Below are positions 1-28,622 of a DNA stretch of 64,000 nucleotides, in pieces. A program made the position numbers and the translations under genes. Positions within the stretch are counted from its first letter, which is position 1; every line of letters starts with the position of its first letter. Origin of the DNA: Candidatus Latescibacterota bacterium. GTDB lineage: Bacteria; Krumholzibacteriota; Krumholzibacteriia; Krumholzibacteriales; Krumholzibacteriaceae. The stretch is taken from NCBI GenBank assembly GCA_019038625.1, contig JAHOYU010000077.1, positions 3,703 to 67,702 of the forward strand, written 5' to 3'. Under the pieces are notes generated by a model. The model was not told the origin of the DNA and ran no database searches. It saw only the letters and a list, made by a program, of their open reading frames with translations.

Positions 1-228
1 CAGGGGAATGTGACTGCGCTCGAACAACGTCCCTACCGTCACCGTAAACGGCTTGCGACAGTGGCCGCACTTGTACAGTCCAGGGCGTGTAGACTTACCC
101 TCAAGCTTGTAAGCCTTGTCCATACCGCCGCAATGTGGGCAGACAACGCCATCAGGCCAGCGAACCTTTTCAAGGTACTCACGTGCCGCCTGTTCATCAT
201 GGAAGTATTGCGCGGAAAGTTGGCTCAT
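1..228 (-). CDS. IS1595-family (ISXO2-like) transposase, N-terminal 76 aa only; the gene runs off the left edge
   Basis: Reverse-complement translation from ATG at 228 gives MSQLSAQYFHDEQAAREYLEKVRWPDGVVCPHCGGMDKAYKLEGKSTRPGLYKCGHCRKPFTVTVGTLFERSHIPL. It has the zinc-ribbon CPHCGG...CGHC and the TVTVGT motif typical of the N-terminus of IS1595-family transposases. AAGGAG RBS at 236-241. It is absent from the ORF track because no stop codon lies within the window. Confidence 0.7.
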   Translation of the reverse strand, partial: MSQLSAQYFHDEQAAREYLEKVRWPDGVVCPHCGGMDKAYKLEGKSTRPGLYKCGHCRKPFTVTVGTLFERSHIPL

Positions 229-231
229 CGG

Positions 232-837
232 TTACTCCTTGAAAGGATTACCATCGGGTGATTTGCCTTTTAAGCATGCAACTGAATTCCAAAGATATTC
301 GCGGTCTTTATCTGAAAGATTTTGATCGCATTTCAGGGTATCAACTATCTGCCCTTGGCGATCCCAAATCTCTTTGAGTAGGGGAATTCTTCCTTCAAGT
401 ATTTTTAGTCGCTCAAGATTAAGTTGATCCAATTGGGCTTTAAGCTGTTTCTCTTGGGTTTCAAGTTGTTGGATTTGAATAGATAAATGCTTTTTATCAG
501 TTTTAAGCCGTTCTGACTTGATGGTGAGTTCATCATAGCGAATTTGCAGAGTGTCCTTTTCGGATTGAATTTGACTTAAGCGATCTTCACTTTCCTGTTT
601 GGCTTTTAAATCGAGGGCTTTATGAAATTGATGAAGGCGGATAAGAGCGGCGACAACTATGATTGTCAACGCGATGTATGCCAAAGTCGATTGGCTAAAA
701 TATATCAACGCCGCTACAATGGAATTGCCAATTCCAAGAATGAAATAAAGGCCATGTTTAAACTTGTCCGGGATGATACCGGTCTGAGCTTTTGGGCTGG
801 GGTTACTATTTGCAATCTTTTCCATGTGTTGCTCCAT
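232..837 (-). CDS. membrane-anchored coiled-coil protein (two predicted TM helices, then a long heptad-rich region)
   Basis: 201-aa ORF. Hydrophobic segments LYFILGIGNSIVAALIYF and IALTIIVVAALI are followed by a K/E/Q/L-rich coiled coil. Promoter-like element just upstream at 843-900. A diverged truncated copy lies at 57353-57652. The stop overlaps the RBS of the transposase gene. Confidence 0.55.
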   Translation of the reverse strand: MEQHMEKIANSNPSPKAQTGIIPDKFKHGLYFILGIGNSIVAALIYFSQSTLAYIALTIIVVAALIRLHQFHKALDLKAKQESEDRLSQIQSEKDTLQIRYDELTIKSERLKTDKKHLSIQIQQLETQEKQLKAQLDQLNLERLKILEGRIPLLKEIWDRQGQIVDTLKCDQNLSDKDREYLWNSVACLKGKSPDGNPFKE

Positions 838-842
838 AGCTT

Positions 843-900
843 GAAAGGTCTATTTCCAATATACATCCTTTGTATCTGGTATGTCAAGTATATAATCGCC
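843..900 (-). promoter_or_regulatory. sigma70-like promoter (TTGACA, 18-nt spacer, TATATT) reading leftward; copy 1 of a repeated element that begins GGCGATTATATACTTGAC
   Basis: The reverse complement is ggcgattatatacttgacataccagatacaaaggatgtatattggaaatagacctttcaa. It is nearly identical to 57279-57338, and its first 23 nt recur inverted at 58047-58064. Confidence 0.5.
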
Positions 901-1055
901 TTAGAAAGTGGGCTTTGAACAACGGCTATCAAGAGGGGCTTAGTCTGGACAGGATTAACCCCGATGGAAACTACGAGCCGAGTAATTGTCAATGGCTGAC
1001 TCGCGGTGAAAACACAAGCAAAATGCACCGGGAAAAACACCGAGTTCAGGTTTAA
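901..1055 (+). pseudogene. HNH homing-endonuclease C-terminal remnant; its 5' part is replaced by the repeat element
   Basis: ORF 870-1055 encodes ...NGYQEGLSLDRINPDGNYEPSNCQWLTRGENTSKMH, which resembles the C-terminal half of HNH_3 endonucleases with the catalytic His replaced. The N-terminal 10 codons of the ORF lie inside the repeated promoter element, so the gene appears to have been interrupted. Confidence 0.45.
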
Positions 1056-1101
1056 TGTAGTTTATAGCAGCAGCACTCACACTTAGCAAAAGGAGAAGCA
1101 G

Positions 1102-1845
1102 ATGGGAAAGCTGCATGAACTATTGAGTGTGGAGCCGGATGTTGTCGGCACTGCAAAAGCCATTGTTGACGAGGGCATCAGCACCCTTGGCAAGAAAGGC
1201 GAAAGGTTTACGGGACTGCGCAAGACCTACCAGCCCCTGGACGAGGAGGGCACCAGCTACCCGCCTGAGATTACTCAGGTACAGGAAACGGTATCGGGCA
1301 AGCTCGATTACGTAGCGGGAACGCTGGCCAAGGCGATTAATATCGTTTTGAGCAAAGAGGTCACGAACACGCTGACCTCGGCCAAGCTCCTGATTGGCAA
1401 AGAAGACTTCGGGGAGTTCCCGGCCACCGTCTACTTGGCTCTGGAAAAGCAGGTTAAGGAGTTCAGGCGCGTGCTTCAGGCGGTGCCTACCCTTGACCCG
1501 GCGTACACATGGAAGGCTGACCCTGGCCGCGCACATACTATGGTAACAGATACCGTTGAAACTCAGCGCACGGAGAAACAGCATCAGCCGGTGGTGATGT
1601 ACGAGGCCACCAAGGAACACCCGGCGCAGGTCGAGATGATCAGCCGGGATGTGGTAGTCGGCAACTGGAACACGATCAAAGAGAGTGGCATGATCTCCGT
1701 CAGGGCCAAGAGTGAGATGCTTGCCCGCTGCGATCAGGTCATCAGGGCCATCAAGACGGCGCGCCAGCGCGCTAACGACATCGAAGCTAGCAAGGTCACC
1801 GTGGGCATGGCGATCTTAAAATTTATAACCGAAGAAAGGAAGTAG
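1102..1845 (+). CDS. hypothetical protein (247 aa)
   Basis: Long ORF with a GGAG RBS 8 nt upstream. No motif recognised. Confidence 0.55.
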   Translation: MGKLHELLSVEPDVVGTAKAIVDEGISTLGKKGERFTGLRKTYQPLDEEGTSYPPEITQVQETVSGKLDYVAGTLAKAINIVLSKEVTNTLTSAKLLIGKEDFGEFPATVYLALEKQVKEFRRVLQAVPTLDPAYTWKADPGRAHTMVTDTVETQRTEKQHQPVVMYEATKEHPAQVEMISRDVVVGNWNTIKESGMISVRAKSEMLARCDQVIRAIKTARQRANDIEASKVTVGMAILKFITEERK

Positions 1846-1977
1846 TACCGATAGGGGTATGCGTCAGCTTTCGCCTTAGTAATGGGGAATAATCCCCTGA
1901 GCAGACGTAACAATTCAGCTTATTACCCCTCAGTCTCAAGAAGGAGCGGTGCATTGAATAACTTGCCAAGGTTACTT

Positions 1978-2014
1978 TGCCGAAACGTGGGTTCGAGTCC
2001 CACCGGGGCCGCCA
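1978..2014 (+). other. tRNA 3'-half fragment: T-arm GTGGG-TTCGAGT-CCCAC, 3' acceptor strand CGGGGCC, discriminator G, encoded CCA
   Basis: Canonical GGTTCGAGTCC T-arm. The complementary 5' acceptor strand (GG followed by pyrimidines) is not found within 100 nt upstream, so this is not a complete tRNA. Confidence 0.5.
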
Positions 2015-2026
2015 ATAAAACTCTAT

Positions 2027-2056
2027 GGCCCCGTAGTTTAGTGGCAGAACGCGGCT
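2027..2056 (+). other. tRNA 5'-half fragment: acceptor strand GGCCCCG, TA, D-arm GTTT-AGTGGCA-GAAC
   Basis: GGCCCCG is the exact complement of the 3' acceptor strand at 2004-2010, which lies 12 nt upstream. No T-arm or 3' acceptor strand follows within 90 nt. Confidence 0.45.
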
Positions 2057-2103
2057 ATAAGCAGACACCCTGGCGTGAGCGAAAGATGCAGACAGCGTTC
2101 CGA

Positions 2104-2176
2104 ATTGCTATAGCTCAATTGGTAGAGCTTCTGACTATGGATCAGACTGTTACCGGTTCAAATCCGGTTAGCGAAT
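2104..2176 (+). tRNA. tRNA gene, 73 nt, no encoded CCA; anticodon loop CUAUGGA, identity uncertain
   Basis: Cloverleaf read by hand: acceptor ATTGCTA/TAGCGAA with six of seven pairs and an A1-A72 mismatch; D-arm GCTC-AATTGGTA-GAGC; anticodon stem TCTGA/TCAGA; 5-nt variable loop; T-arm ACCGG-TTCAAAT-CCGGT. Confidence 0.5.
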
Positions 2177-2195
2177 ATTGAGAGACTTGTAATCT

Positions 2196-2238
2196 CTTGG
2201 GGGGGGGAACAGGCGAGTTCCCTCCCCCCTTTTATTTA
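2196..2238 (+). terminator. rho-independent terminator
   Basis: GGGGGGGGGAAC, loop AGGCGA, GTTCCCTCCCCCC, followed by TTTTATTT. This is a near-perfect 12-bp GC-rich hairpin with a T-tract, immediately after the tRNA region. Confidence 0.7.
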
Positions 2239-2250
2239 AACGGGGATCGA

Positions 2251-2427
2251 ATGACCTACGATGAGTCAAATCTTGAAGATGGCTGCTGCCCGTGGTGTGG
2301 GCATAAGCTTACCCTGCGTAGAATATATGGTAAGTACCACGAAGCGGAGTGCGAGAATTCCAAGTGCGTCGAGGGCTATTACTATGATAGCAGCCCACCT
2401 GAGGTTCACTTTGGACGACCGGAGTAG
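2251..2427 (+). CDS. small Cys4 zinc-ribbon protein
   Basis: An internal ATG of ORF 2197-2427 gives MTYDESNLEDGCCPWCGHKL...HEAECENSKC. The upstream part of that ORF is the terminator hairpin. Confidence 0.5.
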   Translation: MTYDESNLEDGCCPWCGHKLTLRRIYGKYHEAECENSKCVEGYYYDSSPPEVHFGRPE

Positions 2428-2730
2428 ATGATGGATTTATCAAAGCTCAATAAGCTGCTCACCCTGCCGCCGTGGGAATGGGAGGGCATGTGCTTAGTGA
2501 ATCAAGAAGGCGAAACAATTATTGAGGCGGCCCATCCGTCATACGCTACTAATCTCGAAGAATGGAAGCCGTTACTCGCCGCCGCCCCTGACCTGCTGGC
2601 AGAGGTTGAGAAGTTGCGGGAGAAGTTGGCGCAGATAAGCATCTGTGCCAGCAACGCTCAATATGGTCGGCTGGATATGAATGAGGCCATGAGCAGCATA
2701 GCCAAAGCCGCAAAACTGGAGTGTAAGTGA
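2428..2730 (+). CDS. hypothetical early protein; paralog of 63174-63488
   Basis: Shares the M(M/I)DL(S/T)K..PW N-terminus and the AAAPDLLAEVE(K/R)LR segment with the 104-aa ORF at 63174-63488. ATGATGG overlap with the upstream stop. Confidence 0.55.
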   Translation: MMDLSKLNKLLTLPPWEWEGMCLVNQEGETIIEAAHPSYATNLEEWKPLLAAAPDLLAEVEKLREKLAQISICASNAQYGRLDMNEAMSSIAKAAKLECK

Positions 2731-2960
2731 TGGCAATATGTAAGGTGTGCAAGCCGCTGATAGCCGCACTGACCAACGAGGTGTATGCTATAAAGGCCGA
2801 GAGAGATAAGCTGCGAACCGAGAAATCCGTGTATAAGGAACTGGCCGAACTGCGAAGTAGTTTGTTATGCCTCTATCGCGTTGGAGGGAGACCAAGTGAC
2901 CGGCTGCTTGATGGGCTGGATAGATTGCAAAAGAAAGCCGAAGAACTGGAGGGCAAGTGA
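2727..2960 (+). CDS. hypothetical protein (77 aa, coiled-coil-like)
   Basis: Start overlaps the upstream stop (GTGATGG), consistent with operon-style coupling. Confidence 0.45.
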   Translation: MMAICKVCKPLIAALTNEVYAIKAERDKLRTEKSVYKELAELRSSLLCLYRVGGRPSDRLLDGLDRLQKKAEELEGK

Positions 2961-3259
2961 CTGATGAACAGGCACCCTTGAACCTTGAGCCTCGCTTCAA
3001 CGGGCCGGTTTACGAGCCTGTGCAAGATCACTCACGGCTGTACAAGCAGCACGAGGTTATCAGGGGTTACATGCTGTACGCATACCGGCATGGCAGCGGC
3101 TGGCGCACCCTGGCCGAGATAGAAAAGGCCACCGGCTTTCCGCAAGCTTCTATCAGCGCACAACTCAGGCACCTGCGTAAACCGCGCTTTGGAAGCTATG
3201 CGGTAGATAAGCGCAGACGGCGCGATGCGGGCCTTTGGGAATACAGAGTATCACATTAA
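2957..3259 (+). CDS. hypothetical protein (100 aa), possible winged-helix regulator
   Basis: ORF overlapping the upstream stop; basic C-terminus. No firm motif. Confidence 0.45.
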   Translation: MTDEQAPLNLEPRFNGPVYEPVQDHSRLYKQHEVIRGYMLYAYRHGSGWRTLAEIEKATGFPQASISAQLRHLRKPRFGSYAVDKRRRRDAGLWEYRVSH

Positions 3260-3269
3260 CCGGGAGTAA

Positions 3270-3524
3270 ATGATGGCGAACTGGCGGCATAGGGTTAAGC
3301 TCAGAGACCTGTTTGAGTCATTCGACCCACAAGAAACCGCAGAGGCCGAGAAGGCCGAAGTGCTGCGGGTGGGCAAGGCTGTACTTGCAAGGGTTAAGGG
3401 CGAAGATTGCCTTAATGGGTTCCGCCTGAAACGCTTTATTGAGGCCGAAACGGAAGCGCAGTCTAATCGCGTGATCGAGAGCCTATACGATTTTTGCGAC
3501 CAACACCTTATCTGGGTTGATTAA
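3270..3524 (+). CDS. hypothetical protein (84 aa)
   Basis: ORF with a GGAG-type RBS. Confidence 0.45.
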   Translation: MMANWRHRVKLRDLFESFDPQETAEAEKAEVLRVGKAVLARVKGEDCLNGFRLKRFIEAETEAQSNRVIESLYDFCDQHLIWVD

Positions 3525-3553
3525 CCGATCCAAATCACCGAAAGGGACTACAG

Positions 3554-4870
3554 ATGAAAGGATTTAGAATAACCCTACTGATGCTCGATCATTACGGCGG
3601 AGTGAAAGCCGCCCTTGTAAGGCCGGGAGATATACCGGTGATCAAAGTCGAGGGGCCGAATGGAGCCGGGAAGACAACGGTGATCGATTCGATCTTTGCC
3701 GTTGTTGCGGCCCAGACACTGCAAGACCCCATTCGTCACGGCGCGAAAAAGGCCACTATCACGCTGGCCATGAGCAATGAGGAAAAAGATGAAATCACGG
3801 TCACCAGACACATGACCGCGAAGACATCCAGGCTGGAGGTGAGCTACAACGGCGTCCCGCAGGAAAGCCCGCAGACCCTGCTCAACAAGCTGTTCAGCAA
3901 GGTATCGATTGATCCGCTGGCCTTTGCGCGCATGAAAAAGCGGGAGCGCATTGACGTTATACTCGACCTGACCGGCAAGAAGGATGAGATAGCCAAGCTG
4001 GATGCCGAATACCAATGCGCGTACGATGAGCGCACGCTTACCAACCGCATAATCAAGACGCTTCAAGGTAAGCTGGATGGCGAGGAACGCCCGGAGAACG
4101 ATAAGCCAGAGGCCGAGATAGACACACAGGGCGTACTTGATAAACTGGCGGCGGAGCGGCAGCGGATACGGGGGGTTGAAAGCAGCAACGATCAGCGTAA
4201 GATTCTGAGCAACAAGATTCTTGAGGCCGAAGTTGATAGGGACAATAATGCCCGCCAGATAAAGCAGTACGAAGACACTATAGCCTCCCTCAGGGAAGAC
4301 GATAAGAATTTGCAGGAGGCGATAAGCGAGAGAAACAAGGCTATAGCCGATATCGATGATGGGTTGAAGGGCGAGGCACCAAGCGAAGTTGCAGCGCTTG
4401 AACAATCCCTGGTTGACGCACAGGCCCACAACGGTCGGGTGGCCGCTGAAAACGCATACTGGACGCTCATAGCCGATGCGAAGTCCGAGAAAGAAACGTC
4501 TGCGGCCTACACCCGCAAGCTGGAACAGATCGAGGTAGCAAAGCGGGATATCCTGTGCGAGAACCTCCCGTTCAAGGAGATCACCATTACCGGCGATACC
4601 ATTCTAATCGAGGGTAAGCCGTTTGATGACCTGTGCGGCATGGAAAAGATGTTTGCCAGCATGGAAATAGCCCTGCGGATGAATCCAAGCCTACGGGTGA
4701 TCAGGATTGCCGATGGCGCTGAACTGGATAAGAAAAGCTGGAAGAAGATCGAGAGCTTTGCCGTCAAGAATAACCTTCAGGTATGGACTGCCGTTGTGTC
4801 CGATGACCGACACAGTGGTAGTTTCTACATAGAGGAAGGAGTGTTATCGGCAAAAGAAGAGCAAGGGTAG
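3554..4870 (+). CDS. SMC/SbcC/RecF-like AAA ATPase (recombination or repair)
   Basis: Walker A GPNGAGKTT near the N-terminus, a long central coiled coil, and a C-terminal Walker B-like LRVIRIADGAELD. RBS GGGACTACAGATG. Confidence 0.7.
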   Translation: MKGFRITLLMLDHYGGVKAALVRPGDIPVIKVEGPNGAGKTTVIDSIFAVVAAQTLQDPIRHGAKKATITLAMSNEEKDEITVTRHMTAKTSRLEVSYNGVPQESPQTLLNKLFSKVSIDPLAFARMKKRERIDVILDLTGKKDEIAKLDAEYQCAYDERTLTNRIIKTLQGKLDGEERPENDKPEAEIDTQGVLDKLAAERQRIRGVESSNDQRKILSNKILEAEVDRDNNARQIKQYEDTIASLREDDKNLQEAISERNKAIADIDDGLKGEAPSEVAALEQSLVDAQAHNGRVAAENAYWTLIADAKSEKETSAAYTRKLEQIEVAKRDILCENLPFKEITITGDTILIEGKPFDDLCGMEKMFASMEIALRMNPSLRVIRIADGAELDKKSWKKIESFAVKNNLQVWTAVVSDDRHSGSFYIEEGVLSAKEEQG

Positions 4871-4948
4871 CGTGGAGTGATGACAAGTATGGCAAAGGCA
4901 CGGTAGCGTAGGGTTCGGTTCGGTAGAGTAAGGTAAAGGTATGGTGGA

Positions 4949-5377
4949 GTGAAGCATGGTGGAGTTATGGTGCTGGCCGTCCCATCAATAAAGGTGGCTG
5001 ACTTGAGTAAAAAGTCCAAGGGCACATACCGGGCGTGTAGCGGTAAAGGCGTAGAGTTTTTTGACAAAGAGTGGTGGGCTGATGCCGCCGCGATATTGAG
5101 TAGGAAGCTCCCGAAGTCGGTAGTAGTTCGTGGTGAAGAGGTAAGGCAGAACATAGGAGGGGGAAGGGTAAAAAGGCTGGTTGTAAAGGAGTGGATTATC
5201 AACAAGGCCTTTCTGGGCAATCGGGTAGACGATTACAGGAAATGGAACGTGATGAAGTATATCGGTGACAAGGGCGTATGCCTTCTGTACTGCCTGTACC
5301 ACCAGAAAATGACACTACAGGCGCTGGATATCATTGAGGAGGCCGAACCTCATATCCTGCACATACCTGGGGAATGA
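4949..5377 (+). CDS. hypothetical protein (142 aa; the start may be the Met 6 codons downstream)
   Basis: ORF only. Confidence 0.4.
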   Translation: MKHGGVMVLAVPSIKVADLSKKSKGTYRACSGKGVEFFDKEWWADAAAILSRKLPKSVVVRGEEVRQNIGGGRVKRLVVKEWIINKAFLGNRVDDYRKWNVMKYIGDKGVCLLYCLYHQKMTLQALDIIEEAEPHILHIPGE

Positions 5378-5484
5378 TTCTAAACATGCCGCCTGTAAGC
5401 CTCCAGGGGTCGCGCTTACCTACCTTGGCGGGGAACGGCGTGAAGCCCTTGGAGCAGGGCGGGCTTAACTTAAGGAGAATTGAC

Positions 5485-6117
5485 ATGCCTAGAGTCCATT
5501 TTGTAGCAAAGGCACGCAAGGATAACGAAGTATGTAAAAAGGGCGAAAGTTACTACTGGTGGAAGCACAAGACCGGCCCGCGTAGCAGCATAAAACGCAT
5601 GAGTAAAGCCAGACCAAGGGGCAGTGAGCTTACCCTGTCCGACAAGATTGGCCGCATGAGGGCCGCTGGCGAGGCCATAGAAGACTCGTTTGGTAATCTG
5701 GATACTGGTGATGTTGATAGCGCGGAAAGCGTCATCAGCGCCCTTGAGGAAGCTGAGAGTGAGGTGCGTGAGGTGGCCGATGAGTACCGGGAGTCGGCTG
5801 AGAACATGGAAGAGGGCTTTGGCCACTCCACCTCCCAGAGCGAGGCCATCGAAGAGCAGGCCGATGAGGCCGAGAGCTACGCCGATGAGATCGGGAACCT
5901 CAAGGATAGCATCGAGAATGTTGAGATACCCGACAGGGATGATTTCGAGACGGATGCCAAGGAAGAGATCGAAAGGCAGGTCAATGCCAACGAGCTTGAG
6001 GAAGCCGAGAGCGACAGCGCAGTAGCGCAGGTTATGGACGAAAAATACGATGAGGCCGTGAGTGGTTACATAGATGAGATAGGCGGGTACCAAGGCGAAG
6101 CACCGTGCCCCGTATAA
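5485..6117 (+). CDS. highly acidic protein (basic N-terminus, D/E-rich C-terminal 150 aa)
   Basis: Internal ATG with AAGGAG 7 nt upstream. MPRVHFVAKARKD... is followed by long runs such as EEAESEVREVADEYRESAENMEEG. Confidence 0.5.
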   Translation: MPRVHFVAKARKDNEVCKKGESYYWWKHKTGPRSSIKRMSKARPRGSELTLSDKIGRMRAAGEAIEDSFGNLDTGDVDSAESVISALEEAESEVREVADEYRESAENMEEGFGHSTSQSEAIEEQADEAESYADEIGNLKDSIENVEIPDRDDFETDAKEEIERQVNANELEEAESDSAVAQVMDEKYDEAVSGYIDEIGGYQGEAPCPV

Positions 6118-10215: not shown

Positions 10216-10416
10216 ATGCCAGATGATAAAGACCACAAGGGCATCAGGGTATCAAGTCTTATGGATTTAGATTGGGCAAGGAGTCAAAAACTGCCTGTCT
10301 TTATTCCCGCTGACAAATCTTGGGCAGCCCCCAAACCGGCAGCGGTTTTGATTAATCAGGCGGGCCATGTTCTACTGCGCCTGTTCAGGGCCGGTATGTA
10401 CGTCTACGTGAAATGA
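10216..10416 (+). CDS. hypothetical protein (66 aa)
   Basis: ORF with RBS AGGAGATGTTATG. Confidence 0.4.
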   Translation: MPDDKDHKGIRVSSLMDLDWARSQKLPVFIPADKSWAAPKPAAVLINQAGHVLLRLFRAGMYVYVK

Positions 10417-10434
10417 CCAACGCACCTGAAAGGG

Positions 10435-11583
10435 GTGAATATTATGGTGGAGAACAAAGATAATACCTCAACGGAGATGACAACGCGGGATAAGTCATTC
10501 ACAAGCCAGCTTGTTTCAACCGGTGGGACGCACATCGGCAAGCTCCTGCAAAAGCGTCATGATATTGAATACTTCATCGGGCAGGCGGTCATCAGCCTGA
10601 TGGGCAGTGAAAAGGAAAAAGAATACAATATCGCACGCCAACATCCCCACCAGCTTCTTAAGGTAATAGGCCAGCAGGCCATACTTGGCCTTCAGAGCAG
10701 CCTGGGGCTGTGCCATATCGTTGCTTTCGGGCAAACCCTACAACTTATGGTAGACTACAAGGGATATCTGGAAGTGGCGCACCGTCACCCACAGATCAAG
10801 CAGATTATTGCGAAAGCCGTCTATGAGAAAGACGAGATCGATATAGATTCTGCGCGCAAGCCGCCGGTGGCCCACCGCATAAGCCTCGATGATGACCGTG
10901 GTAAGCTCCGTGGCGCATACGCTATGGTGGAGTATACAAACGGCGGTTTTGATTTCCGCTGGTGCCCTGAGTCTGAGATTCTCGATATACGCGACAAGTA
11001 CTCTAAGGCGTGGAAAGCCAAAGGCAAGTCAAGTGTCTGGGGCCAGCGTCCGAGTGAGATGTACGTCAAGACAGCCGTTAACCTACTGTGGAAAATACTG
11101 CCGAAGACGGATGCAATGCACCAGCTTTACAAGTTTGACAACGCGGCCAGCGCCGAAATGCCGTCAGACCGGACACCCGAAGGCGAAACGACTGAAAACC
11201 TGTCAGAAAGAATGCGGGAGGAAAGCGCACGCCAGCGCGGCCAGACCACAGAAGAACCGTCCGCGCCAGCCAACATCGAAGACGCTCAGTTTGAGGAAAC
11301 GGAGCCAGCGACAGAGCCGCCACCCGAAAAACCGGAGAAAGGCAAGAAGGGGACTACGAGCAGCAAGAAGGAAAAGCCAGCAACGAACCCGGCTGCGGGG
11401 AAAAAGAATACGTTTTCTGCCAAACACCACCAGCGCCTTGCCGATCTGATTGAATTCTTCGGCAACCCGAAGGTAGTGGATGCCCGACAAACTCTTGACA
11501 TTATGAAATTTCACATTGGGGATCATACGCCAGAAGACGTAGAGCGTATCGCCCAACTGCTTGAAAACGGCTCAACTAATTAG
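10435..11583 (+). CDS. RecT-family single-strand annealing protein
   Basis: The N-terminal 230 aa follow the RecT pattern, including the C-proximal ...SVWGQRPSEMYVKTAVNLLWKILP (the M..KT....L.K.LP signature). A low-complexity acidic/basic tail follows. Adjacent to the exonuclease and ATPase. Confidence 0.6.
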   Translation: MNIMVENKDNTSTEMTTRDKSFTSQLVSTGGTHIGKLLQKRHDIEYFIGQAVISLMGSEKEKEYNIARQHPHQLLKVIGQQAILGLQSSLGLCHIVAFGQTLQLMVDYKGYLEVAHRHPQIKQIIAKAVYEKDEIDIDSARKPPVAHRISLDDDRGKLRGAYAMVEYTNGGFDFRWCPESEILDIRDKYSKAWKAKGKSSVWGQRPSEMYVKTAVNLLWKILPKTDAMHQLYKFDNAASAEMPSDRTPEGETTENLSERMREESARQRGQTTEEPSAPANIEDAQFEETEPATEPPPEKPEKGKKGTTSSKKEKPATNPAAGKKNTFSAKHHQRLADLIEFFGNPKVVDARQTLDIMKFHIGDHTPEDVERIAQLLENGSTN

Positions 11584-22085: not shown

Positions 22086-25000
22086 CTATTTCTTAATGCG
22101 CCCAATATCGCGCAGGGATTTTCTCAACTGCTTGCCAGGATCAGGAGGCTTTGGGAAAACAGGAGATTCCCGAACCGGAACCGCCTTAAGTTCGGGATTG
22201 ATTTTCCTCTGCTCCTTGATGAACCGACTCTTAACGGACTTCGCAGTTTTCTTCTCCATTGACCCATCCGCGACAGCCCTATCCACTGCACTCTTGAAAC
22301 GCTCCCGCTCTCCTGCGGTAAACACGGTGGTCGCCGCATCGTCCAACATACCGTAGACAGTTTGCTTACTCTTACCAGGATAAGGTTTACGGTAAAAACG
22401 GCGCATCACGGGTATAAACCGCGTTTCTATCTTTTCATCAGTTGCCAGTGAGATGCCGGTAGCCACCGAATTGCTGACAAACTTCCCAATTCCACCGCCC
22501 AGGAAGTTGATCGTGTGGTCAATATACTCAGGGCTGACATCCGCCGCACCGAAAGGCTTACGCTGCGTAGCGGTCTTCTCTGCCAACCAGCGAGTGAATT
22601 CCCTTGTGGATGGGCGCACGCCCTTGAAATATAACTGGTGCCGTGGCTTTTTAGGCCCATAGGCCGGTTGATCTGGTGCCACAGGGCCACCGAAAAATGT
22701 TTTATTTGTAGCCAACTGCACCGGCAGATCAAGGGCAGTCGGTGAAATGATCTGTGTCAACGGGCCACCGCCAACAGGACTTGCAGCATCGGCCACCGCG
22801 CCCACCATCCTGGCCGCGAGTTTAACTGGATCAGGGTTATTGCCTAATGCCATTTCTGCCGCCAGTCCACCGAGCGCCCAATAGACGTTAAGCCCGTAAG
22901 GCAACGGTACGCTCAATGTTCTGCCGCCGCCAAGATGCCAAGTAGCGTTCTGATCCTTTTGGAAGTCGGCCACTTCCTCCCAATCGTCAGGATCGATCAT
23001 GCGATTCTTTAACTCGTTGAGAAATGCGGTGGCTATGATAAGGCCGATCAGCGCCTGTGCCCTTACCTGTCCTGCCGTCTTAGGCTTACCGGGGATGCCG
23101 ATTGTTCTCAAATTACGGGCTATGCCCTGAATCGTAGCATTTGAGAACAGGTACAGACTGTTCAATATCCTACCGATTTCACCTTTTTTATTAAAGTTGA
23201 CGGTCACGTTTTTAGCATAACTCGCGGCCACTTCCTTTGTCGCGCCAGCACCCTTAAGGTGATGGTATACCGACAGGCGGATACCGCTCTCCACCATCTC
23301 ATTGTAATCCTGTATTAATTGCCCAAGGACTTTTATCGGTGCGACTATCCGACCTTTACCCGTGTAAGAGCGCACCTTGCGCTCAAGCTGTTTTATCCTC
23401 TGCTCCAACGGCTTGTTGTCAAACCAACCTACCTTACCGCCAGTAGCCTTCAAGTCCTCATACTCAGCAGCCCAACCTTTATCCGCATCACTTCTGATGT
23501 TACCGCGCACACCGTTGATAGCCGCAGGTAGTGAGGCAAGTGTCTTAGTCGCCAGCTTAAATCCATGATCGGAAGTGATATGGAATGTGGCCGTGGGGGT
23601 ATCCCTGATGAAGTTGAAGATCGGGAATACGGGCGAAAACGTTGTTATTACCCCGCGCTGTATGGTGTTAAACAGTTCAAGCGCACCGCCGATTATGGGC
23701 ACGGTACTCTCTGTACCTAAGCTTTTCATTGCACGGGCGAGAACCACATCCCTGATAGTCACCTCTATGGTCTTGCCCTCTTCCTTGACGGCAAATATCT
23801 CATGCGCATAATCACTCGCCGGATCACGAAACGCAATCTCTCCCTCTTCGTTTATTGTCGAAGGGTTAAAGACCTCCTTGGCATCCCAAAGCGGATGAGG
23901 ATTGTTGCGCACGAACTCAAGGAACGTACTGGCTACCTTGTTCTTTTCCTCGCGCATTACCGCCTGCTCGTAGTCTACGATGGCCTGCACGAATGGATTG
24001 TCCGCAATCGACCAGCGCCCATGTGCCCGCTTAATGGACTTCCCGCTTACCGAGAATCCCTTACCGATACCACGATAGGCTTTCTTACCCGCCTTACCCT
24101 TGAGCGGTACGTAATAATTGTACTGGTCCTTATACTTCTGGTAAGCTTCTTCTGTGATCTCACCATAGTCACGGTAACGTTCGAGCGTCACGTTGATAAT
24201 CTTCTTACGGAACTCATCGGCAAACTCTTCTATGCCCGTACCCTCGTAACGATCCAGAACAACAGCAGCCTGGTTTAATGATATACCGGCCCCGAAAGTA
24301 TCATCCCGATCCTCAAGCCTCGCACTCAGCTTCGCAAGTTCCTTTTCAGCCACCTCTGGCGTGATAACCCCAGCCTCAAGCTGTGCGTTAAGATCGTCAA
24401 TCATCTCTCCGTACTTAGCCTGACGGCGTTCGGCGGTGTGCTTCGCGTACATGAACCCACCGAGTTTGCCCACACTATATCCAGCTTGAGCCAAGCGCAC
24501 CATGAACGACTTCCTGCCCTTGGTCAGAAAATCCTCAAGTTTATCAAGCTCGTGCGACACTCTGCCGGGGAACAACTCTGCGGCCAGCCGCGTATCCTCT
24601 GTCTGCGGAACCACATCATAAGCTTTCTGGATTGTCTCTATTCTGTTCAGCTTATCGACTACCACGCGCACAAACTTCTCCCTGTTTGTCTCATCATCAA
24701 TCTGAGGAATGGTGCGCTCAAGATCAGCAGAGACATCGGTGCGGGCGAAGCGCAACCCCTGCTCTGCGGCCACCATCTGCCGCTCAAGCTCTGCGATCTT
24801 CTGCAAGTAACGCATCTGTATGTTTTCCGTGCTCACCCCGTTGCGCATCGGCGGTAGGTTAGCCAACAACTCTGATACCTGCTGTATCTCCTTCTCTATG
24901 GCAACAGGGTCAAGGGTACGGGCGAACAAAGGCTGACCAGCCTCTCTCTCCGCTCTCTTGCGCCCCATACTCGCCCTCAGAGCATCATCGAGCAACACCC

Positions 25001-28000
25001 TTAGTTCGGCTTCACTGAACGCAAATCGCACACCTATGGCCTTCAGGGTGCGCCGTATGAAGGCCATCAGCCTGTCCAACAGACTCGGTGCTACCGTTCC
25101 ATCCTCTATCTGTCCGGCAAGCATTTCCTCGGCAGCTTTTTCAAGGGGAATGTTCCACCTGTCGGCTATGCCCTGGATTTCATCTTTGTACTTCTTATGC
25201 TCGATCAACTCCTTGCGGTAGAACTCATCGATACCACTACCGAGTACCCGGCGTAGCCCGTAGTGCGCTACAACCTCATGCAATACAGTGCTAACCGCTT
25301 TCTTGCGTTGCCGCAGGCTATCGGCTATCAGATACATTTCTTCGGTAGTCGGATCGAAGAAGCCACGGATTACGCCGCCCTTTTCCATCTCAGCCTTCAC
25401 CGCATCCTGGTACTGCGCTGGCAGGTCTTCAACGGACTGCACGGTATTCACCGGCACGTCAATCTTGGCGGCCAGTGGCTTAACCGCATCCTCGATGAAC
25501 TTGACGGACTTAGGTTTTGCGGCAGGCTTGCCTTCCCGTGTTGCAAAGCGGAGCTTGCCTTCTGGCGGTTTCTCGGTGGGTTTTACTTCCTCAGCAGCGG
25601 GCTTTTTCTTTAGACGCGCCTCTCTGCTATCAATCAAATATTTAGCATCGGAGAAGGCTCGTGCGTGCATCTTAGCACCATCCTTTTCCAATCTAAAGGC
25701 ATACTTTTCCCCAAGCGGAGACATAGGATTAATTTTAACAACTCTATACCCGTGTTTTTTTGCATACTCTCGAACTTCTTTAATTTCTGACCTGCGCACA
25801 GCATAGCCATCAAATGTCTTGACGGCCTCATAATCTTCACCGAGAGACTTGGCTTTGCGCTGTGCTGCTCCCTGAGACTTAAATGGACGACCAGTGCTGG
25901 TGAATATTAGTTCTGGTTCAATCTTTACTTCCTCGCGCTGCTCAGGCGCGTCCTCAACGGGCGGAGCGGATTTCTCAAGCTCGGTCAGCTTGCGCTTGTC
26001 CTTCTCAACCTGTCGGGCAACAGCGGCCAGCGCATCCTTGCTCATCTTTTTACCGATAACATTCTTACCAGACTCAAGAATCATCTCGCCTTCGCGGATG
26101 TCGTTCTTCTTTGCCTGGATTGCGGCTGCATCAAGAACTGGCTTCACTTCCTCTTTCATTCCCGCAGCTTCGGTTACAGGCGCGGCGGGTTCGGGTTTGG
26201 CTGGGGGTGTGCTGGCATCAACAATAACAGCCGGAAATGATTTTACCCCAAGCATTGCAAGGGCATCAAATCGATGACCACCCTCAAGGATATATGGCCC
26301 CTTGTCTTCTATGGCTACAATAAGTGGATTGATTTCTTTATTGCTCTTAATTTCATCCGCAAGTTTACGGATGCGTTCATTCTCAGTAGCACTATGGGAG
26401 GGTTTGTTTACGTCTTCTGCCACTGTGAAGGCATCCATAGAAACATCCCTAACGCCCGGTAATATTTCATATTCACCTTCGTCATAGGTTGATTCTATCG
26501 AACCCATGTTAGGTACGGCTTTGCGGACAGTGTAACCGTACAGCTTATCTTTGGTCGTTGGGGCCGCCCTAACGCTTTCAATGTTCGCCTCTACCGCCTC
26601 AGCCTTTTCCTCGCCCTTTTCTTCCGCAACGACTTCAGGCTCCGGTGCGACCTCAGCTTGTGCTTCTTCTTCTTTTTCTTCCGCTTTTTCCTCGAAAACT
26701 TCACGTGCATGCTCTCTCGCGTACACATCAACTGGCTTGTCGCTCTTATATAGTTCATCTACGGCCTCCACTGTACCAAGTTTGGAAACCTTATCCTCGA
26801 TAAACTTGCGTGTATCATCGGTTATCTCTGCCTCTGCCTCAACCGCCTTCGCCAGCTTCTTTTCAATCTCTGTTGCTGGTTCTTTTTCCTCAGCCTTGCG
26901 CTTTTCCTCAGCGGCGAGGGCTGAAACTTCCTCTTTCGCTGGCTCTTCTGGCTTCTCTGCGGCTTTTTCCTCTTCCGCCACCTCTTTGACCGGCTCTTCA
27001 GCGATCACCTCTTCAGCGGCCTCTGCGGGCTTTTCGGTGGTAACTTCTTCGCCAAACATTTTATTCAGATCAGATTCAAGTTCGTCGGCTGTTTCAGCGG
27101 GCTTTTTCGCAGTGGGCTCTTCTTTGGGCTTTTCGACCTCTTTTTTAACCTTAACTTCTTTCTCTGTAACGGGTTTAGTGGGGGGCTCTTCAGCCACCGC
27201 AAGTTCTTCATCCTCTATCAGTGCTTCAGCCTCCTCCGCGCTTACCTCGGCCTCTACCTCTGGCCCCAATTCTTTCGTGAACGGCTGTTTGGCCTTGTCG
27301 CCCTCGACTGTCTTTTCTGCCTCAAGTTTCTCTTTTACGGCAGCTTGCATATCATCTCTTATCTTGCGCTCACGAATTAGTTGCTCTTCCTGCTCAAGAC
27401 CCAAATCGCCTTTCCCCTGCTCTTCCTCCAAGGCTTTTACGCGGTTCTCCTGTGCTTTCTGGATATAACCCGATACGGCACTTCCACCACCACCCATAAT
27501 CATCGCAGGGCCAATAACAGCAAGCCCGTCCTTCATCTTCTGGCGATACTCGGCACCCTCCATGCCTAAGATTTCAGCCTCAAGCGGTTCTTCGGCGTAT
27601 TCTGTTGCCCCCTCGGTTAATGCCGCCACGGTAGCCATAACAAGCTTCTTGCCCTTATACTTGGAAAATATGGCAGTAAAGCCTATTTGGTTGAGAACCG
27701 CGCTACCCACGGTCATCAACATCATATCCTTGAACGCTTCATCCGGCTCATTCCCGCGCTCACGCGATTCACCATAGGTATTTGCCCCCTCCATCATGCC
27801 CGCAGAAATACCACCAATAGCAGTCGCGGCGAGTTTCCCGAATCTTAGCGCAGCCGCGCCAGGAAGCATCGCGGCGAGAAACGATGGAGCCATATTACCA
27901 ACTCCATACAAGGTAAATCGAGGGTCAAGGATGATCTCAGGGTTATCCCAAAGGTTCTTGCCCTGTAATTCTTTCGCCATTGGGTGTTCTTCGGCCTTCT

Positions 28001-28622
28001 CCTTTAAGAAGTCCCTTACGCGCCTTGCCCCTATTTCAAGGGCACCCTCTCCTTCAACCTGTTCTGCTACCGCGTGCGTTATGGCAAACGGAATACTCGC
28101 TACGTCGAGGACACCTGCGGTCAATCCCTCGGCCAGTGATTCCATATACCCTTGTGGGTCGGCTATAGATCGTTGATCTTCTGGCATCTGCTCAACCACA
28201 CCACCGGCTTCAGGCATTACCGGGAGTTCGGACACGGTATCATACGGCTCCGGCTCCAAGCCTACGATATCCGCAATACCAGACTCTTGCGCGGCGGCAG
28301 CCAATTCCTTGTCGGCCTCTAACGAGAACCGATCCGGTTCAGCCGCTACCGCTGTTTCTGGAAATAGTGGGCGCTGCCCTTCGACCATAGCCTGATGCGC
28401 CTCGGTAAGCTGGTCACCGGCCATAGGATTAGGGAGATACTTATTAAGGAAGTGATCTTTAATGCGTGTCTGGTCTTCTGCGGCAATAGAATTAAAACGG
28501 TTATCTGCAATATTATTATCGAAATACTTCATAACTATCGCAGACTGTTGTTCGTGGGGCAACCTGATAAACCGTTCATCCCGCTGCCACTTATTGATTA
28601 ATCTGCTCAGGCGATCAGGCAT
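22086..28622 (-). CDS. giant 2178-aa protein with an internal ParB/Srx-like nuclease domain; probably an ejected internal-virion or polyvalent protein
   Basis: Single uninterrupted ORF. N-terminal region with Gly/Ala-rich hydrophobic segments; 300 aa of E/K/A-rich low complexity; ParB-like motif NPLIVAIEDKGPYILEGGHRFDALAMLG at about 26200-26360; HEVVAHYG motif; about 1000-aa C-terminal globular region. It sits in the slot occupied by large ejection proteins in podovirus-like gene orders. Confidence 0.6.
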   Translation of the reverse strand: MPDRLSRLINKWQRDERFIRLPHEQQSAIVMKYFDNNIADNRFNSIAAEDQTRIKDHFLNKYLPNPMAGDQLTEAHQAMVEGQRPLFPETAVAAEPDRFSLEADKELAAAAQESGIADIVGLEPEPYDTVSELPVMPEAGGVVEQMPEDQRSIADPQGYMESLAEGLTAGVLDVASIPFAITHAVAEQVEGEGALEIGARRVRDFLKEKAEEHPMAKELQGKNLWDNPEIILDPRFTLYGVGNMAPSFLAAMLPGAAALRFGKLAATAIGGISAGMMEGANTYGESRERGNEPDEAFKDMMLMTVGSAVLNQIGFTAIFSKYKGKKLVMATVAALTEGATEYAEEPLEAEILGMEGAEYRQKMKDGLAVIGPAMIMGGGGSAVSGYIQKAQENRVKALEEEQGKGDLGLEQEEQLIRERKIRDDMQAAVKEKLEAEKTVEGDKAKQPFTKELGPEVEAEVSAEEAEALIEDEELAVAEEPPTKPVTEKEVKVKKEVEKPKEEPTAKKPAETADELESDLNKMFGEEVTTEKPAEAAEEVIAEEPVKEVAEEEKAAEKPEEPAKEEVSALAAEEKRKAEEKEPATEIEKKLAKAVEAEAEITDDTRKFIEDKVSKLGTVEAVDELYKSDKPVDVYAREHAREVFEEKAEEKEEEAQAEVAPEPEVVAEEKGEEKAEAVEANIESVRAAPTTKDKLYGYTVRKAVPNMGSIESTYDEGEYEILPGVRDVSMDAFTVAEDVNKPSHSATENERIRKLADEIKSNKEINPLIVAIEDKGPYILEGGHRFDALAMLGVKSFPAVIVDASTPPAKPEPAAPVTEAAGMKEEVKPVLDAAAIQAKKNDIREGEMILESGKNVIGKKMSKDALAAVARQVEKDKRKLTELEKSAPPVEDAPEQREEVKIEPELIFTSTGRPFKSQGAAQRKAKSLGEDYEAVKTFDGYAVRRSEIKEVREYAKKHGYRVVKINPMSPLGEKYAFRLEKDGAKMHARAFSDAKYLIDSREARLKKKPAAEEVKPTEKPPEGKLRFATREGKPAAKPKSVKFIEDAVKPLAAKIDVPVNTVQSVEDLPAQYQDAVKAEMEKGGVIRGFFDPTTEEMYLIADSLRQRKKAVSTVLHEVVAHYGLRRVLGSGIDEFYRKELIEHKKYKDEIQGIADRWNIPLEKAAEEMLAGQIEDGTVAPSLLDRLMAFIRRTLKAIGVRFAFSEAELRVLLDDALRASMGRKRAEREAGQPLFARTLDPVAIEKEIQQVSELLANLPPMRNGVSTENIQMRYLQKIAELERQMVAAEQGLRFARTDVSADLERTIPQIDDETNREKFVRVVVDKLNRIETIQKAYDVVPQTEDTRLAAELFPGRVSHELDKLEDFLTKGRKSFMVRLAQAGYSVGKLGGFMYAKHTAERRQAKYGEMIDDLNAQLEAGVITPEVAEKELAKLSARLEDRDDTFGAGISLNQAAVVLDRYEGTGIEEFADEFRKKIINVTLERYRDYGEITEEAYQKYKDQYNYYVPLKGKAGKKAYRGIGKGFSVSGKSIKRAHGRWSIADNPFVQAIVDYEQAVMREEKNKVASTFLEFVRNNPHPLWDAKEVFNPSTINEEGEIAFRDPASDYAHEIFAVKEEGKTIEVTIRDVVLARAMKSLGTESTVPIIGGALELFNTIQRGVITTFSPVFPIFNFIRDTPTATFHITSDHGFKLATKTLASLPAAINGVRGNIRSDADKGWAAEYEDLKATGGKVGWFDNKPLEQRIKQLERKVRSYTGKGRIVAPIKVLGQLIQDYNEMVESGIRLSVYHHLKGAGATKEVAASYAKNVTVNFNKKGEIGRILNSLYLFSNATIQGIARNLRTIGIPGKPKTAGQVRAQALIGLIIATAFLNELKNRMIDPDDWEEVADFQKDQNATWHLGGGRTLSVPLPYGLNVYWALGGLAAEMALGNNPDPVKLAARMVGAVADAASPVGGGPLTQIISPTALDLPVQLATNKTFFGGPVAPDQPAYGPKKPRHQLYFKGVRPSTREFTRWLAEKTATQRKPFGAADVSPEYIDHTINFLGGGIGKFVSNSVATGISLATDEKIETRFIPVMRRFYRKPYPGKSKQTVYGMLDDAATTVFTAGERERFKSAVDRAVADGSMEKKTAKSVKSRFIKEQRKINPELKAVPVRESPVFPKPPDPGKQLRKSLRDIGRIKK
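22087..22132. repeat. 46-bp direct repeat, copy 2 (3' end of the giant ORF, encoding ...PGKQLRKSLRDIGRIKK)
   Basis: Exact duplicate of 21938-21983. Confidence 0.7.

Follow-up and report, generated by a model that had tools for sequence, protein, structure and literature searches.

A 64-kb window of the contig JAHOYU010000077.1 (64,000 nucleotides of DNA assigned to a Candidatus Latescibacterota bacterium; "the window" means this whole stretch) carries, just downstream of a gene for a DUF7873 protein, an element in which the two halves of a tRNA-like structure lie in reverse order. The element is almost certainly a real, structured RNA that mimics a tRNA, and it belongs to a large phage-specific family. 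It is tied genetically to the DUF7873 gene that immediately precedes it, and a functional link between the two is probable. The best explanation overall, which is held with modest confidence, is that the element is a phage Y-RNA-like tRNA mimic of ~160 nucleotides (nt) encoded beside DUF7873. The structural claims are strong, and the model of how the RNA is processed is plausible. A precedent is provided by YrlA, a Y RNA whose 5' and 3' ends form a Ro60-binding stem and whose tip is a tRNA-like domain in permuted order (PMC4201824).

All of the features of the element lie on the forward strand. Its core begins with the 5'-proximal strand of an inner stem, GCCG (1979-1982), which is equivalent to positions 40-43 in the anticodon stem of a tRNA. 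This strand is followed by a variable-loop equivalent, AAAC (1983-1986), whose C1986 takes the place of C48; by a T-arm, GTGGG-TTCGAGT-CCCAC (1987-2003); by a 3' acceptor strand, CGGGGCC (2004-2010); and by the discriminator G2011 and an encoded CCA (2012-2014). A 12-nt linker, ATAAAACTCTAT (2015-2026), closes the acceptor stem and leads into the 5' acceptor strand, GGCCCCG (2027-2033). U8 and A9 (2034-2035), a D-arm, GTTT-AGTGGCA-GAAC (2036-2050), and G2051 in the place of G26 come next, and the core ends with the 3'-proximal strand of the inner stem, CGGC (2052-2055), equivalent to tRNA positions 27-30. The coordinates that the original prediction gave for the T-arm, acceptor strands, CCA, D-arm, and closing stem are exact to the base. 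A base-level reading of the window also bore out its statements that the halves stand in 3'-then-5' order 12 nt apart, that 2027-2033 is the exact complement of 2004-2010, and that the CGGC at 2052 can pair with the GCCG at 1979-1982.

Could an ordinary tRNA account for these pieces? ARAGORN, one of the checks proposed with the prediction, called only the neighboring tRNA at 2103-2177 and no intact tRNA over 1978-2056. Because this neighbor is the only tRNA found by ARAGORN and by Rfam (at gathering thresholds), no ordinary tRNA explains the pieces; even at E ≤ 10, none was found over 1978-2056 by either program. The arrangement in the window is also well beyond chance. A strict pattern scan, which required a 5-bp T-stem, a TTYRANN loop, a 7-nt strand, and a perfectly pairing 7-nt strand within 3-80 nt, gave one match only on both strands of the window, at this site. 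R1, a covariance model of the family built from 30 members, likewise gave a single match, at 1961-2086 (76.3 bits, E = 2e-19), and this match is partly by construction because the window sequence is one of the 30 training rows. Close relatives were not seen at the nucleotide level: there was no match by megablast of window positions 1-6000 to GenBank phages and none of an exact 25-mer of the element to IMG/VR, and blastn of 1940-2102 returned short T-arm or tRNA matches only. The minimum free energy (MFE) fold of the window RNA alone has a z-score of only -1.8 and draws the D-arm wrongly, and therefore the structure rests on comparative data.

The comparative data come from loci related through their DUF7873 genes. 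The first nine of these (homologs with 34-45% identity, from IMG/VR contigs and from phages of Rhizobium, Arthrobacter, Gordonia, and Vibrio) all have at least one module downstream on the same strand by the strict scan. The module has the same order in relatives, namely a T-arm, a 7-nt strand, a linker, a perfectly pairing 7-nt strand, and a D-arm. A profile search of IMG/VR for DUF7873 yielded 419 relatives, from which 80 loci were kept, and the strict scan was positive downstream of the gene in 70 of the 80. There were 87 matches in 113 kb, whereas the gene itself and its upstream side gave 8 in 176 kb and the minus strand 8 in 289 kb. R1 gave 93 matches in 78 non-redundant sources, every one of them on the strand of the DUF7873 gene. 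It recovered the loci missed by the strict scan, save for one prematurely ending contig and two loci that appear by eye to be variants, with a 155-nt linker or a TTTAAGT/TGCAATT T-loop. Overall, the permuted module follows the DUF7873 gene in 91 of 92 related loci, on the same strand and 60-500 nt downstream, and the exception is a contig that ends too early to tell. The window belongs to this family, as its R1 match lies immediately downstream of DUF7873 (gene end 1845) on the same strand. Further members were found among GTDB species genomes, where there were three DUF7873 matches, all on contigs of metagenome-assembled genomes (MAGs), with the RNA present in all three. The complete genome of Gordonia phage Ronaldo has one R1 match, directly after DUF7873. 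The family RNA went undetected by ARAGORN (~70 loci) and at Rfam gathering thresholds (~20 loci), and there is no Rfam family for it.

Two modules follow DUF7873 in tandem in many loci, and apparently three in some. Examples are L003 (3660-3795 and 3844-3978) and L006 (2797-2920 and 2952-3094), and the same is seen in L016, L027, L029, L034, L039, L053, L061, L063, L067, L069, and L074. The first module of a tandem often has a class-II-like D-arm (GCGGAATGGCAGACGC). In phage Ronaldo, the one curated genome checked, small hypothetical-protein calls overlap the RNA. One of them, gp125 (L007, 2989-3198), overlaps the R1 match (3129-3276) and a further tRNA-like module seen by eye, and this coding sequence is probably an artifact of gene calling across RNA genes.

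Evidence for the fold comes from base pairing and its covariation, counted on a 93-sequence alignment fitted to R1. Paired cells make up 94% of the total, compared with 57.5% in shuffles and 40-48% when partners were slid, and cells changed on both sides number 751 compared with 226 in shuffles. Covariation is found in all four helices, in other words in the acceptor, T, D, and inner stems. In the acceptor helix (7 bp), pairing reaches 99.4% and every pair covaries; the T and D helices are 99.8% and 97% paired, respectively, and covary as well. The four core pairs of the inner stem are 90-97% paired and occur as all Watson-Crick types. Further evidence comes from the Levitt pair 15:48, which lies outside the model structure and covaries (G:C in 55 sequences, A:U in 30, and other combinations in 4; p = 3.6e-19); G15 and C48 form it in the window. 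U8 is present in 92 of 93 sequences, and the T- and D-loops are canonical, with TTCRA in the former and GG in the latter. As judged from these comparisons, the tRNA-like domain folds into the L-shape of a tRNA that has no anticodon loop.

In place of an anticodon loop, the inner stem runs on, via a 7 x 13-nt internal loop, into further helices of 50-60 nt per side. In the window, the first of these (P1) is formed by GCCA-A-GG (1965-1971, with A1969 bulged) and CCTGGC (2069-2074), as indicated by the Rfam YrlA alignment, the MFE fold, and duplex prediction. Outer closing helices, with their 5' strands in 1943-1955, would pair GGAGCG (1943-1948) with 2096-2101 and TGCAT (1950-1954) with 2086-2090, the individual base pairs here being a prediction of the MFE fold. 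The family as a whole supports such a stem. Duplexes between cognate 5' and 3' flanks average -27.6 kcal/mol, against -18.5 kcal/mol for non-cognate ones. When the 73 possible partners are ranked, the cognate flank comes first in 16 loci and falls within the top 5% in 37. The flanks beyond the model helices are specifically complementary and pair into a long, irregular closing stem.

The flanks also carry conserved motifs. A loop motif in the 3' arm, UAUAAGCAG (2056-2064 in the window), has the family form U[UA]AG or UCAG, which is the UAAG of 2058-2061 in the window; in 46 of 75 loci it is found no more than 12 nt from the inner stem, as compared with 4 of 75 at a control offset. A conserved GAAA peaks 25-29 nt after the inner stem, with 21 occurrences in 75 flanks, and stands at +25 in the window (2081-2084). 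Upstream of the RNA, a box, TATTACCC (1921-1928; family T[AT]TTG[AC]CC), lies at -41 from the model start. Of 75 loci, 41 match a loose 8-nt pattern of this box in the 90 nt that precede the model start, and by reading of the list ~33 of the 41 matches fall at -38 to -57, a count made without a chance control. The box lacks the spacing of a sigma-70 promoter. Between the DUF7873 gene and the RNA, many loci carry in-register arrays of T-Y-A-G-N-N hexamers, with 3-6 or more repeats in, for example, L079, L045, L051, and L032. Spacings from one YAG to the next peak at 6 nt (78) and 12 nt (53), compared with ~10 at other lags and with 11 and 10 at lags 6 and 12 in a control region. At least three hexamers are in register in 26 of 75 loci, versus 2 of 75 control segments. 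The array may be a periodic protein-binding site. The window thus carries the UAAG, the GAAA, and TATTACCC, and the hexamer array only weakly (TCAGCT TTCGCC TTAGTA, 1864-1881); its membership in the array class is tentative because only two YAG are in register. A small hairpin, GGGG-AATAAT-CCCC (1884-1897), also lies between the DUF7873 stop codon and the RNA.

What is the protein encoded next to the RNA? The gene (1102-1845, forward strand) specifies 247 amino acids (aa), matches Pfam PF25283 over its full length (E = 1.8e-71), and ends ~100 nt before the RNA. The DUF7873 family comprises 2,594 clusters at 50% identity, and its best 150 matches are 242-275 aa long with no fusions. It is almost wholly viral, with 419 loci in IMG/VR, whereas 185,579 species genomes, scanned with a single peptide pattern of limited sensitivity, gave 3 MAG contigs. 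A protein identical to that of the window is recorded on a 70.9-kb contig of a MAG labelled Bacteroidales. An AlphaFold2 model (mean predicted local confidence, pLDDT, 89.5) has the secondary-structure order beta-alpha-beta-beta-alpha-beta, with a long beta-hairpin and flanking helices, and is ferredoxin- or RNA recognition motif-like. Searches of the PDB with a single protein and with a profile gave nothing, as did searches of PHROGs, NCBIfam, and PADLOC, and a Pfam search with 38 members at E ≤ 10 returned only DUF7873 itself. Foldseek with the model found nothing significant in the PDB (template modeling score, TM, ~0.12) or in BFVD. Roughly half of its top 50 non-significant PDB hits are Cas7/CasC, Csm3, and Cmr backbone subunits (E 0.03-0.2, TM 0.12-0.16), a lead to which the Pfam search of 38 members adds no sequence support. 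Cas7/Csm3 backbone proteins bind RNA with a 6-nt period, which may be compared with the YAG hexamer spacing, again as a lead and not as evidence. No mention of DUF7873 was found in the searchable literature.

Four long contigs with DUF7873 have nothing in common beyond a gene-free RNA/tRNA gap. On one of the four (L097), a gene for a T4 Rnl1-type RNA ligase (10336-11415) lies 1.6 kb downstream of DUF7873, past a 1.4-kb gene-free stretch. DUF7873 is cast as the partner of the RNA because of their invariant adjacency and for no other reason, and the chances that the two form a direct complex appear evenly balanced.

The gene, the RNA, and the neighboring tRNA may be expressed together. A scan of 900-2500 found no sigma-70-like promoter and only one intrinsic terminator, located after the tRNA (from 2199 to 2228 or 2238, forward strand). 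The lack of a promoter and the single terminator suggest one DUF7873-RNA-tRNA transcription unit, in which the RNA is probably co-transcribed with DUF7873 and the downstream tRNA. That tRNA (2103-2177, forward strand; called by ARAGORN as His with anticodon AUG, 58 bits in Rfam) abuts the 3' end of the RNA. Since the outer stem ends at 2101 and the tRNA starts at 2103-2104, the RNase P site of the tRNA would set the 3' end of the RNA. In roughly 15 of 60 related loci scanned, by our own count, a tRNA starts ~10-30 nt past the end of the RNA model.

These tRNAs are themselves unusual. The one in the window has A34, which is very unusual for bacteria and phages, and an A1-A72 mismatch as its first acceptor pair. 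The tRNAs just downstream in relatives often have odd anticodons too, namely Tyr-AUA, Asn-AUU, Ile-AAU, and Val-AAC (all A34) and a UUA suppressor, and two Ile-UAU tRNAs are found likewise downstream in related loci. Such tRNAs occur at L024 2608-2680, L068 2877-2948, L022 2617-2689, L056 1592-1668, and L071 2653-2727. They may make up a non-standard class of phage tRNA that goes with the module. ARAGORN also calls a phage-borne transfer-messenger RNA (tmRNA; 664-1031, tag DKSYALAA*) ~500 nt upstream of DUF7873 on a viral contig of 189 kb (L010).

How might the RNA be processed? RNase P recognizes its substrates by determinants that include a U at position -1 and a 12-bp coaxial helix of the acceptor and T stems. 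In the family, a 7-bp acceptor stem always adjoins a T-stem of 5 bp, and a U precedes the 5' acceptor strand in 48 of 93 members. The 3' acceptor strand is followed directly by NCCA in 45 of 93, where chance would give ~1/64 (1.6%). The linker is not conserved in length (3-83 nt, median 22). The YrlA of Mycobacterium smegmatis likewise has an acceptor stem of 7 bp; RNase P cleaves it, and a CCA end is added to the 5' piece in vivo (PMC4201824). From the determinants and this precedent we infer a cut at U2026/G2027 and trimming to the CCA that ends at 2014 in the window. Processing by RNase P and CCA maturation is, on this analysis, somewhat more probable than its absence.

A model can be put together from these elements. 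The window segment 1943-2101 encodes a non-coding RNA of ~160 nt whose ends pair into a long irregular stem, with the permuted tRNA-like domain at its tip, in the order anticodon-stem equivalent, variable loop, T-arm, 7-bp acceptor stem, and D-arm. Host RNase P would cut between U2026 and G2027, and 3' exonucleases would trim the linker back to the encoded CCA (2012-2014); in members that encode no CCA, the CCA-adding enzyme would supply the end. This would leave a tRNA mimic in two pieces, joined by pairing in the acceptor, inner, and outer stems and with its CCA end free, as was observed for M. smegmatis YrlA. Other parts of the model are more speculative. The UWAG and GAAA motifs of the stem together with the YAG hexamer array might bind DUF7873, and the particle might show its anticodon-less, tRNA-shaped head to tRNA-directed host factors as a decoy or tether, as part of a phage tRNA-maintenance program that is independent of Ro60. 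Such a role towards tRNA-targeting factors is put forward tentatively. A wider reading, which is equally tentative, is that DUF7873 and the RNA make up a new phage-wide ribonucleoprotein (RNP), in which a new or RAMP-like fold binds the YAG repeats and the RNA stem, while the stem carries the two-piece, CCA-ended, anticodon-less mimic and the particle decoys, inhibits, or recruits factors that act on the tRNA elbow or 3' tail. Candidate targets would be defense nucleases directed at the anticodon or acceptor, CRISPR effectors that cleave tRNA tails, nucleotidyltransferase toxins, and exoribonucleases. If true, the RNP would be a Ro-independent viral counterpart of Y RNPs.

Several observations weigh against the picture of a processed tRNA mimic that acts with DUF7873. 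About half of the members encode no CCA. Acceptor sequences and discriminators are not conserved in the family, and so there is no common aminoacylation identity. Cleavage by RNase P, maturation of the CCA end, and binding by DUF7873 are inferences for every member. DUF7873 is not basic (median pI 6.6), and sequence and fold searches revealed no RNA-binding domain or structural homolog for it; its adjacency to the RNA could therefore mean co-expression or a role in cis and not a complex. Finally, the alignment is model-fitted, and the training sequences were selected for perfect core helices. For this reason three independent checks matter, namely the Levitt pair, U8 and the loops, and the flanks. 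The two outermost pairs of the inner stem, the Levitt pair, and the downstream excess over controls had no part in the selection of the training sequences.

The alternative that survives best is a cis-acting element, in which the tRNA-like fold recruits RNase P and punctuates a DUF7873-tRNA polycistron in the manner of a tRNA. The DUF7873 mRNA would be left with an exonuclease-resistant CCA 3' end, and there would be neither a function in trans nor a protein complex. This would agree with an RNA that lies in the 3' untranslated region of DUF7873 within a single transcription unit and is often directly followed by a tRNA, with the presence of RNase P determinants (the 7-bp acceptor stem and the U at -1), and with a protein that has no RNA-binding signature. 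However, a processing signal would have no need of a complete D-arm, a Levitt pair, a long specific stem, or conserved loop motifs. Several loci have two or three modules in tandem, and an ordinary tRNA would serve as punctuation equally well. We regard this alternative as improbable, though less so than those that follow.

A second alternative is that the RNA is a canonical Ro60-dependent YrlA, which works with host Ro60/Rsr and polynucleotide phosphorylase, with DUF7873 as an unrelated neighbor. Its overall architecture is the same as that of YrlA (PMC4201824). In a permissive Rfam scan, the YrlA model (RF02553) is the only one that aligns full length (1965-2077, 28 bits, E = 5.6e-4, against a gathering score of 69). 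Related loci score 28.8-42 bits, also below that threshold. The gathering score is a weak criterion here, because the bona fide, Ro-adjacent YrlA of mycobacteriophage Bxz1 also reaches only 32.5 bits, close to the score in the window. YrlA genes lie within ~4 kb of the Ro60 (TROVE) gene and on its strand (PMC4201824). However, no TROVE domain was found among the 20 largest open reading frames (ORFs) tested in the window, tblastn with the Bxz1 Ro protein against the window gave nothing (best E = 0.11), and tblastn found no Ro homolog in the complete genome of the DUF7873-bearing phage Ronaldo. The Ro-binding motif GNCGAAN0-1G is absent from window positions 1900-2102, and in the family it is no more frequent than expected by chance (3 of 75 members). 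R1 matches the tRNA-like core of the Bxz1 YrlA (28 bits) and not its stems. The genera of the phages in GenBank differ largely as well: Ro is found in 357 phage records, mainly of Mycobacterium (212) and Streptomyces (117), while DUF7873 is found in 75 (Vibrio 29, Rhizobium 12, Gordonia 12, Klebsiella 7, Serratia 6, and others).

The hosts of DUF7873 phages span many phyla, whereas Ro60 orthologs are present in only a minority of bacteria (about 5% of genomes). Ro60 may still be host-encoded, which is a further point against the favored explanation; the missing binding motif argues against dependence on a host Ro60. These results (a sub-threshold score, no Ro motif, no Ro gene, other hosts, and a match of the core only) lead to the view that the RNA is a distinct relative or analog of YrlA, and a Ro60-dependent YrlA is unlikely.

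A third alternative is a genuine permuted or split tRNA gene; a permuted one had been the more speculative suggestion of the original prediction. Permuted tRNA genes are known from Cyanidioschyzon merolae, prasinophyte algae, and some archaea, where the 3' half lies upstream of the 5' half and a short linker connects the acceptor ends. They yield decoding tRNAs via a circular intermediate that is formed at a bulge-helix-bulge (BHB) motif by the splicing endonuclease. The element in the window is like the C. merolae type in having the 3' half first, complementary acceptor strands, and a short linker, and the halves could in principle be circularized and re-cut, or ligated in trans, into a decoding tRNA; the Rnl1-type ligase gene 1.6 kb downstream on one related contig may be set on this side. 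When the halves are rejoined in silico, ARAGORN reports a tRNA for 539 of the 750 junctions tried. The anticodon that is called, however, depends wholly on the arbitrary junction, so this rejoining is uninformative. Unlike the C. merolae type, the element has neither a 7-nt anticodon loop nor a conserved anticodon, its stem extends for 50-60 nt per side, inspection of the window sequence revealed no BHB, and it stands in a bacterial virus context; to our knowledge, bacteria lack the splicing endonuclease used in this pathway. Thus, the idea of a functional permuted arrangement, with its order conserved under selection, has held up, and that of a permuted tRNA gene has not and is very improbable.

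Two-piece tmRNAs offer another permuted precedent. In alpha-proteobacteria, cyanobacteria, and some beta-proteobacteria, the tmRNA gene is permuted, the intervening segment is excised, and two base-paired pieces result. The element shares with permuted ssrA the order of a T-arm and a 3' acceptor-CCA, a gap, and a 5' acceptor strand, and the Rfam models tmRNA_permuted (18.9 bits) and beta_tmRNA (16.5 bits) align weakly and locally, over the T-arm and acceptor stem only. It is scarcely credible, however, that it is a miniature two-piece tmRNA active in trans-translation. The scores are far below the gathering thresholds (47 and 84 bits), and ARAGORN calls no tmRNA here. The G3:U70 pair of alanine identity is replaced by C3:G70 in the window, and in the family G-U or U-G occurs in at most 6 of 93 sequences at any acceptor position and in none at the presumed 3:70 column. 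A full D-arm is present, which tmRNA lacks, and no tag ORF or pseudoknot domain fits the arms of roughly 50 nt.

Last, the two relic readings of the original prediction, a decayed tandem tRNA pair and an attP or other att-site remnant, can draw on the facts that phages often carry tRNA 3' fragments at att sites and that dimeric tRNAs can mimic YrlA matches (PMC4201824), but both are refuted by conservation with compensatory change across ~90 divergent phage loci, where acceptor strands of differing sequence are perfectly complementary, the helices and the Levitt pair covary, the position relative to DUF7873 is fixed, and ARAGORN and Rfam find no flanking tRNA halves, so that a functionless relic has a negligible chance of being right.

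Other genes of the window are phage-like and include an SU10-type portal, RecT, a DnaC-like loader, and a DNA methylase; a YqaJ-like match is weak (20.2 bits, below the cut-off of 22). An ORF of 438 aa (3554-4870, forward strand) encodes an SMC/RecF-like AAA ATPase (phrog_1499) with weak similarity to the defense-system ATPases LmuB, PtuA, AriA, and MAD3. The largest ORF (22086-28622, reverse strand) has 2,178 aa. An ORF of 851 aa (51674-54229, reverse strand) has weak, sub-threshold LAGLIDADG and Hom_end matches in the middle of the protein, suggesting that a large phage protein contains an intein or has had an endonuclease inserted.

Transfer RNAs are a major battleground between bacteria and phages, and the tRNA clusters of phages are read as countermeasures. 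The family described here offers a conserved and structurally complete tRNA mimic that is unable to decode and is tied to a large uncharacterized family of phage proteins. On the explanation favored above, a Y-RNA-like mimic beside DUF7873, it would add a new component to the phage toolkit for tRNA conflict and would be the first tRNA mimic of the Y-RNA type to work without Ro60. R1 now allows the RNA to be annotated, and members in culturable phage-host pairs (Gordonia, Arthrobacter, Rhizobium, Vibrio, Klebsiella, and Serratia) make the predictions directly testable. Apart from Ro-associated YrlA, the searchable literature yielded no account of a phage RNA with a permuted tRNA-like form. A 2023 survey of candidate structured viral RNAs mentions tRNA-like candidates only generically (PMC10690425), and this RNA may be among its unnamed candidates.

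Among known systems, YrlA comes closest (RF02553; PMC4201824). The two have in common a long stem made from the 5' and 3' ends, the permuted domain order of variable loop, T-arm, acceptor stem closed by a loop, and D-arm, the retention of tRNA tertiary nucleotides including a covarying 15:48, and an occurrence in phages; the 7-bp acceptor stem is shared with the YrlA of M. smegmatis. Unlike YrlA, the RNA has DUF7873 and not Ro60/TROVE as its gene neighbor, its stem carries the UWAG and GAAA motifs, a YAG hexamer array and a box lie upstream, and about half of the members have the CCA written in the genome. The Ro module of Bxz1 (gp220) is similar in that a phage-encoded, tRNA-like Y RNA lies beside a protein gene and near tRNA genes. 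It differs in that its RNA is upstream of the protein gene instead of downstream and its partner is a 552-aa TROVE protein, and the host range of actinobacteriophage Ro modules is a different one. Thus, the RNA is a real and apparently undescribed Y-RNA-like tRNA mimic of phages, which differs from known ones in its gene partner and in its independence of Ro60.

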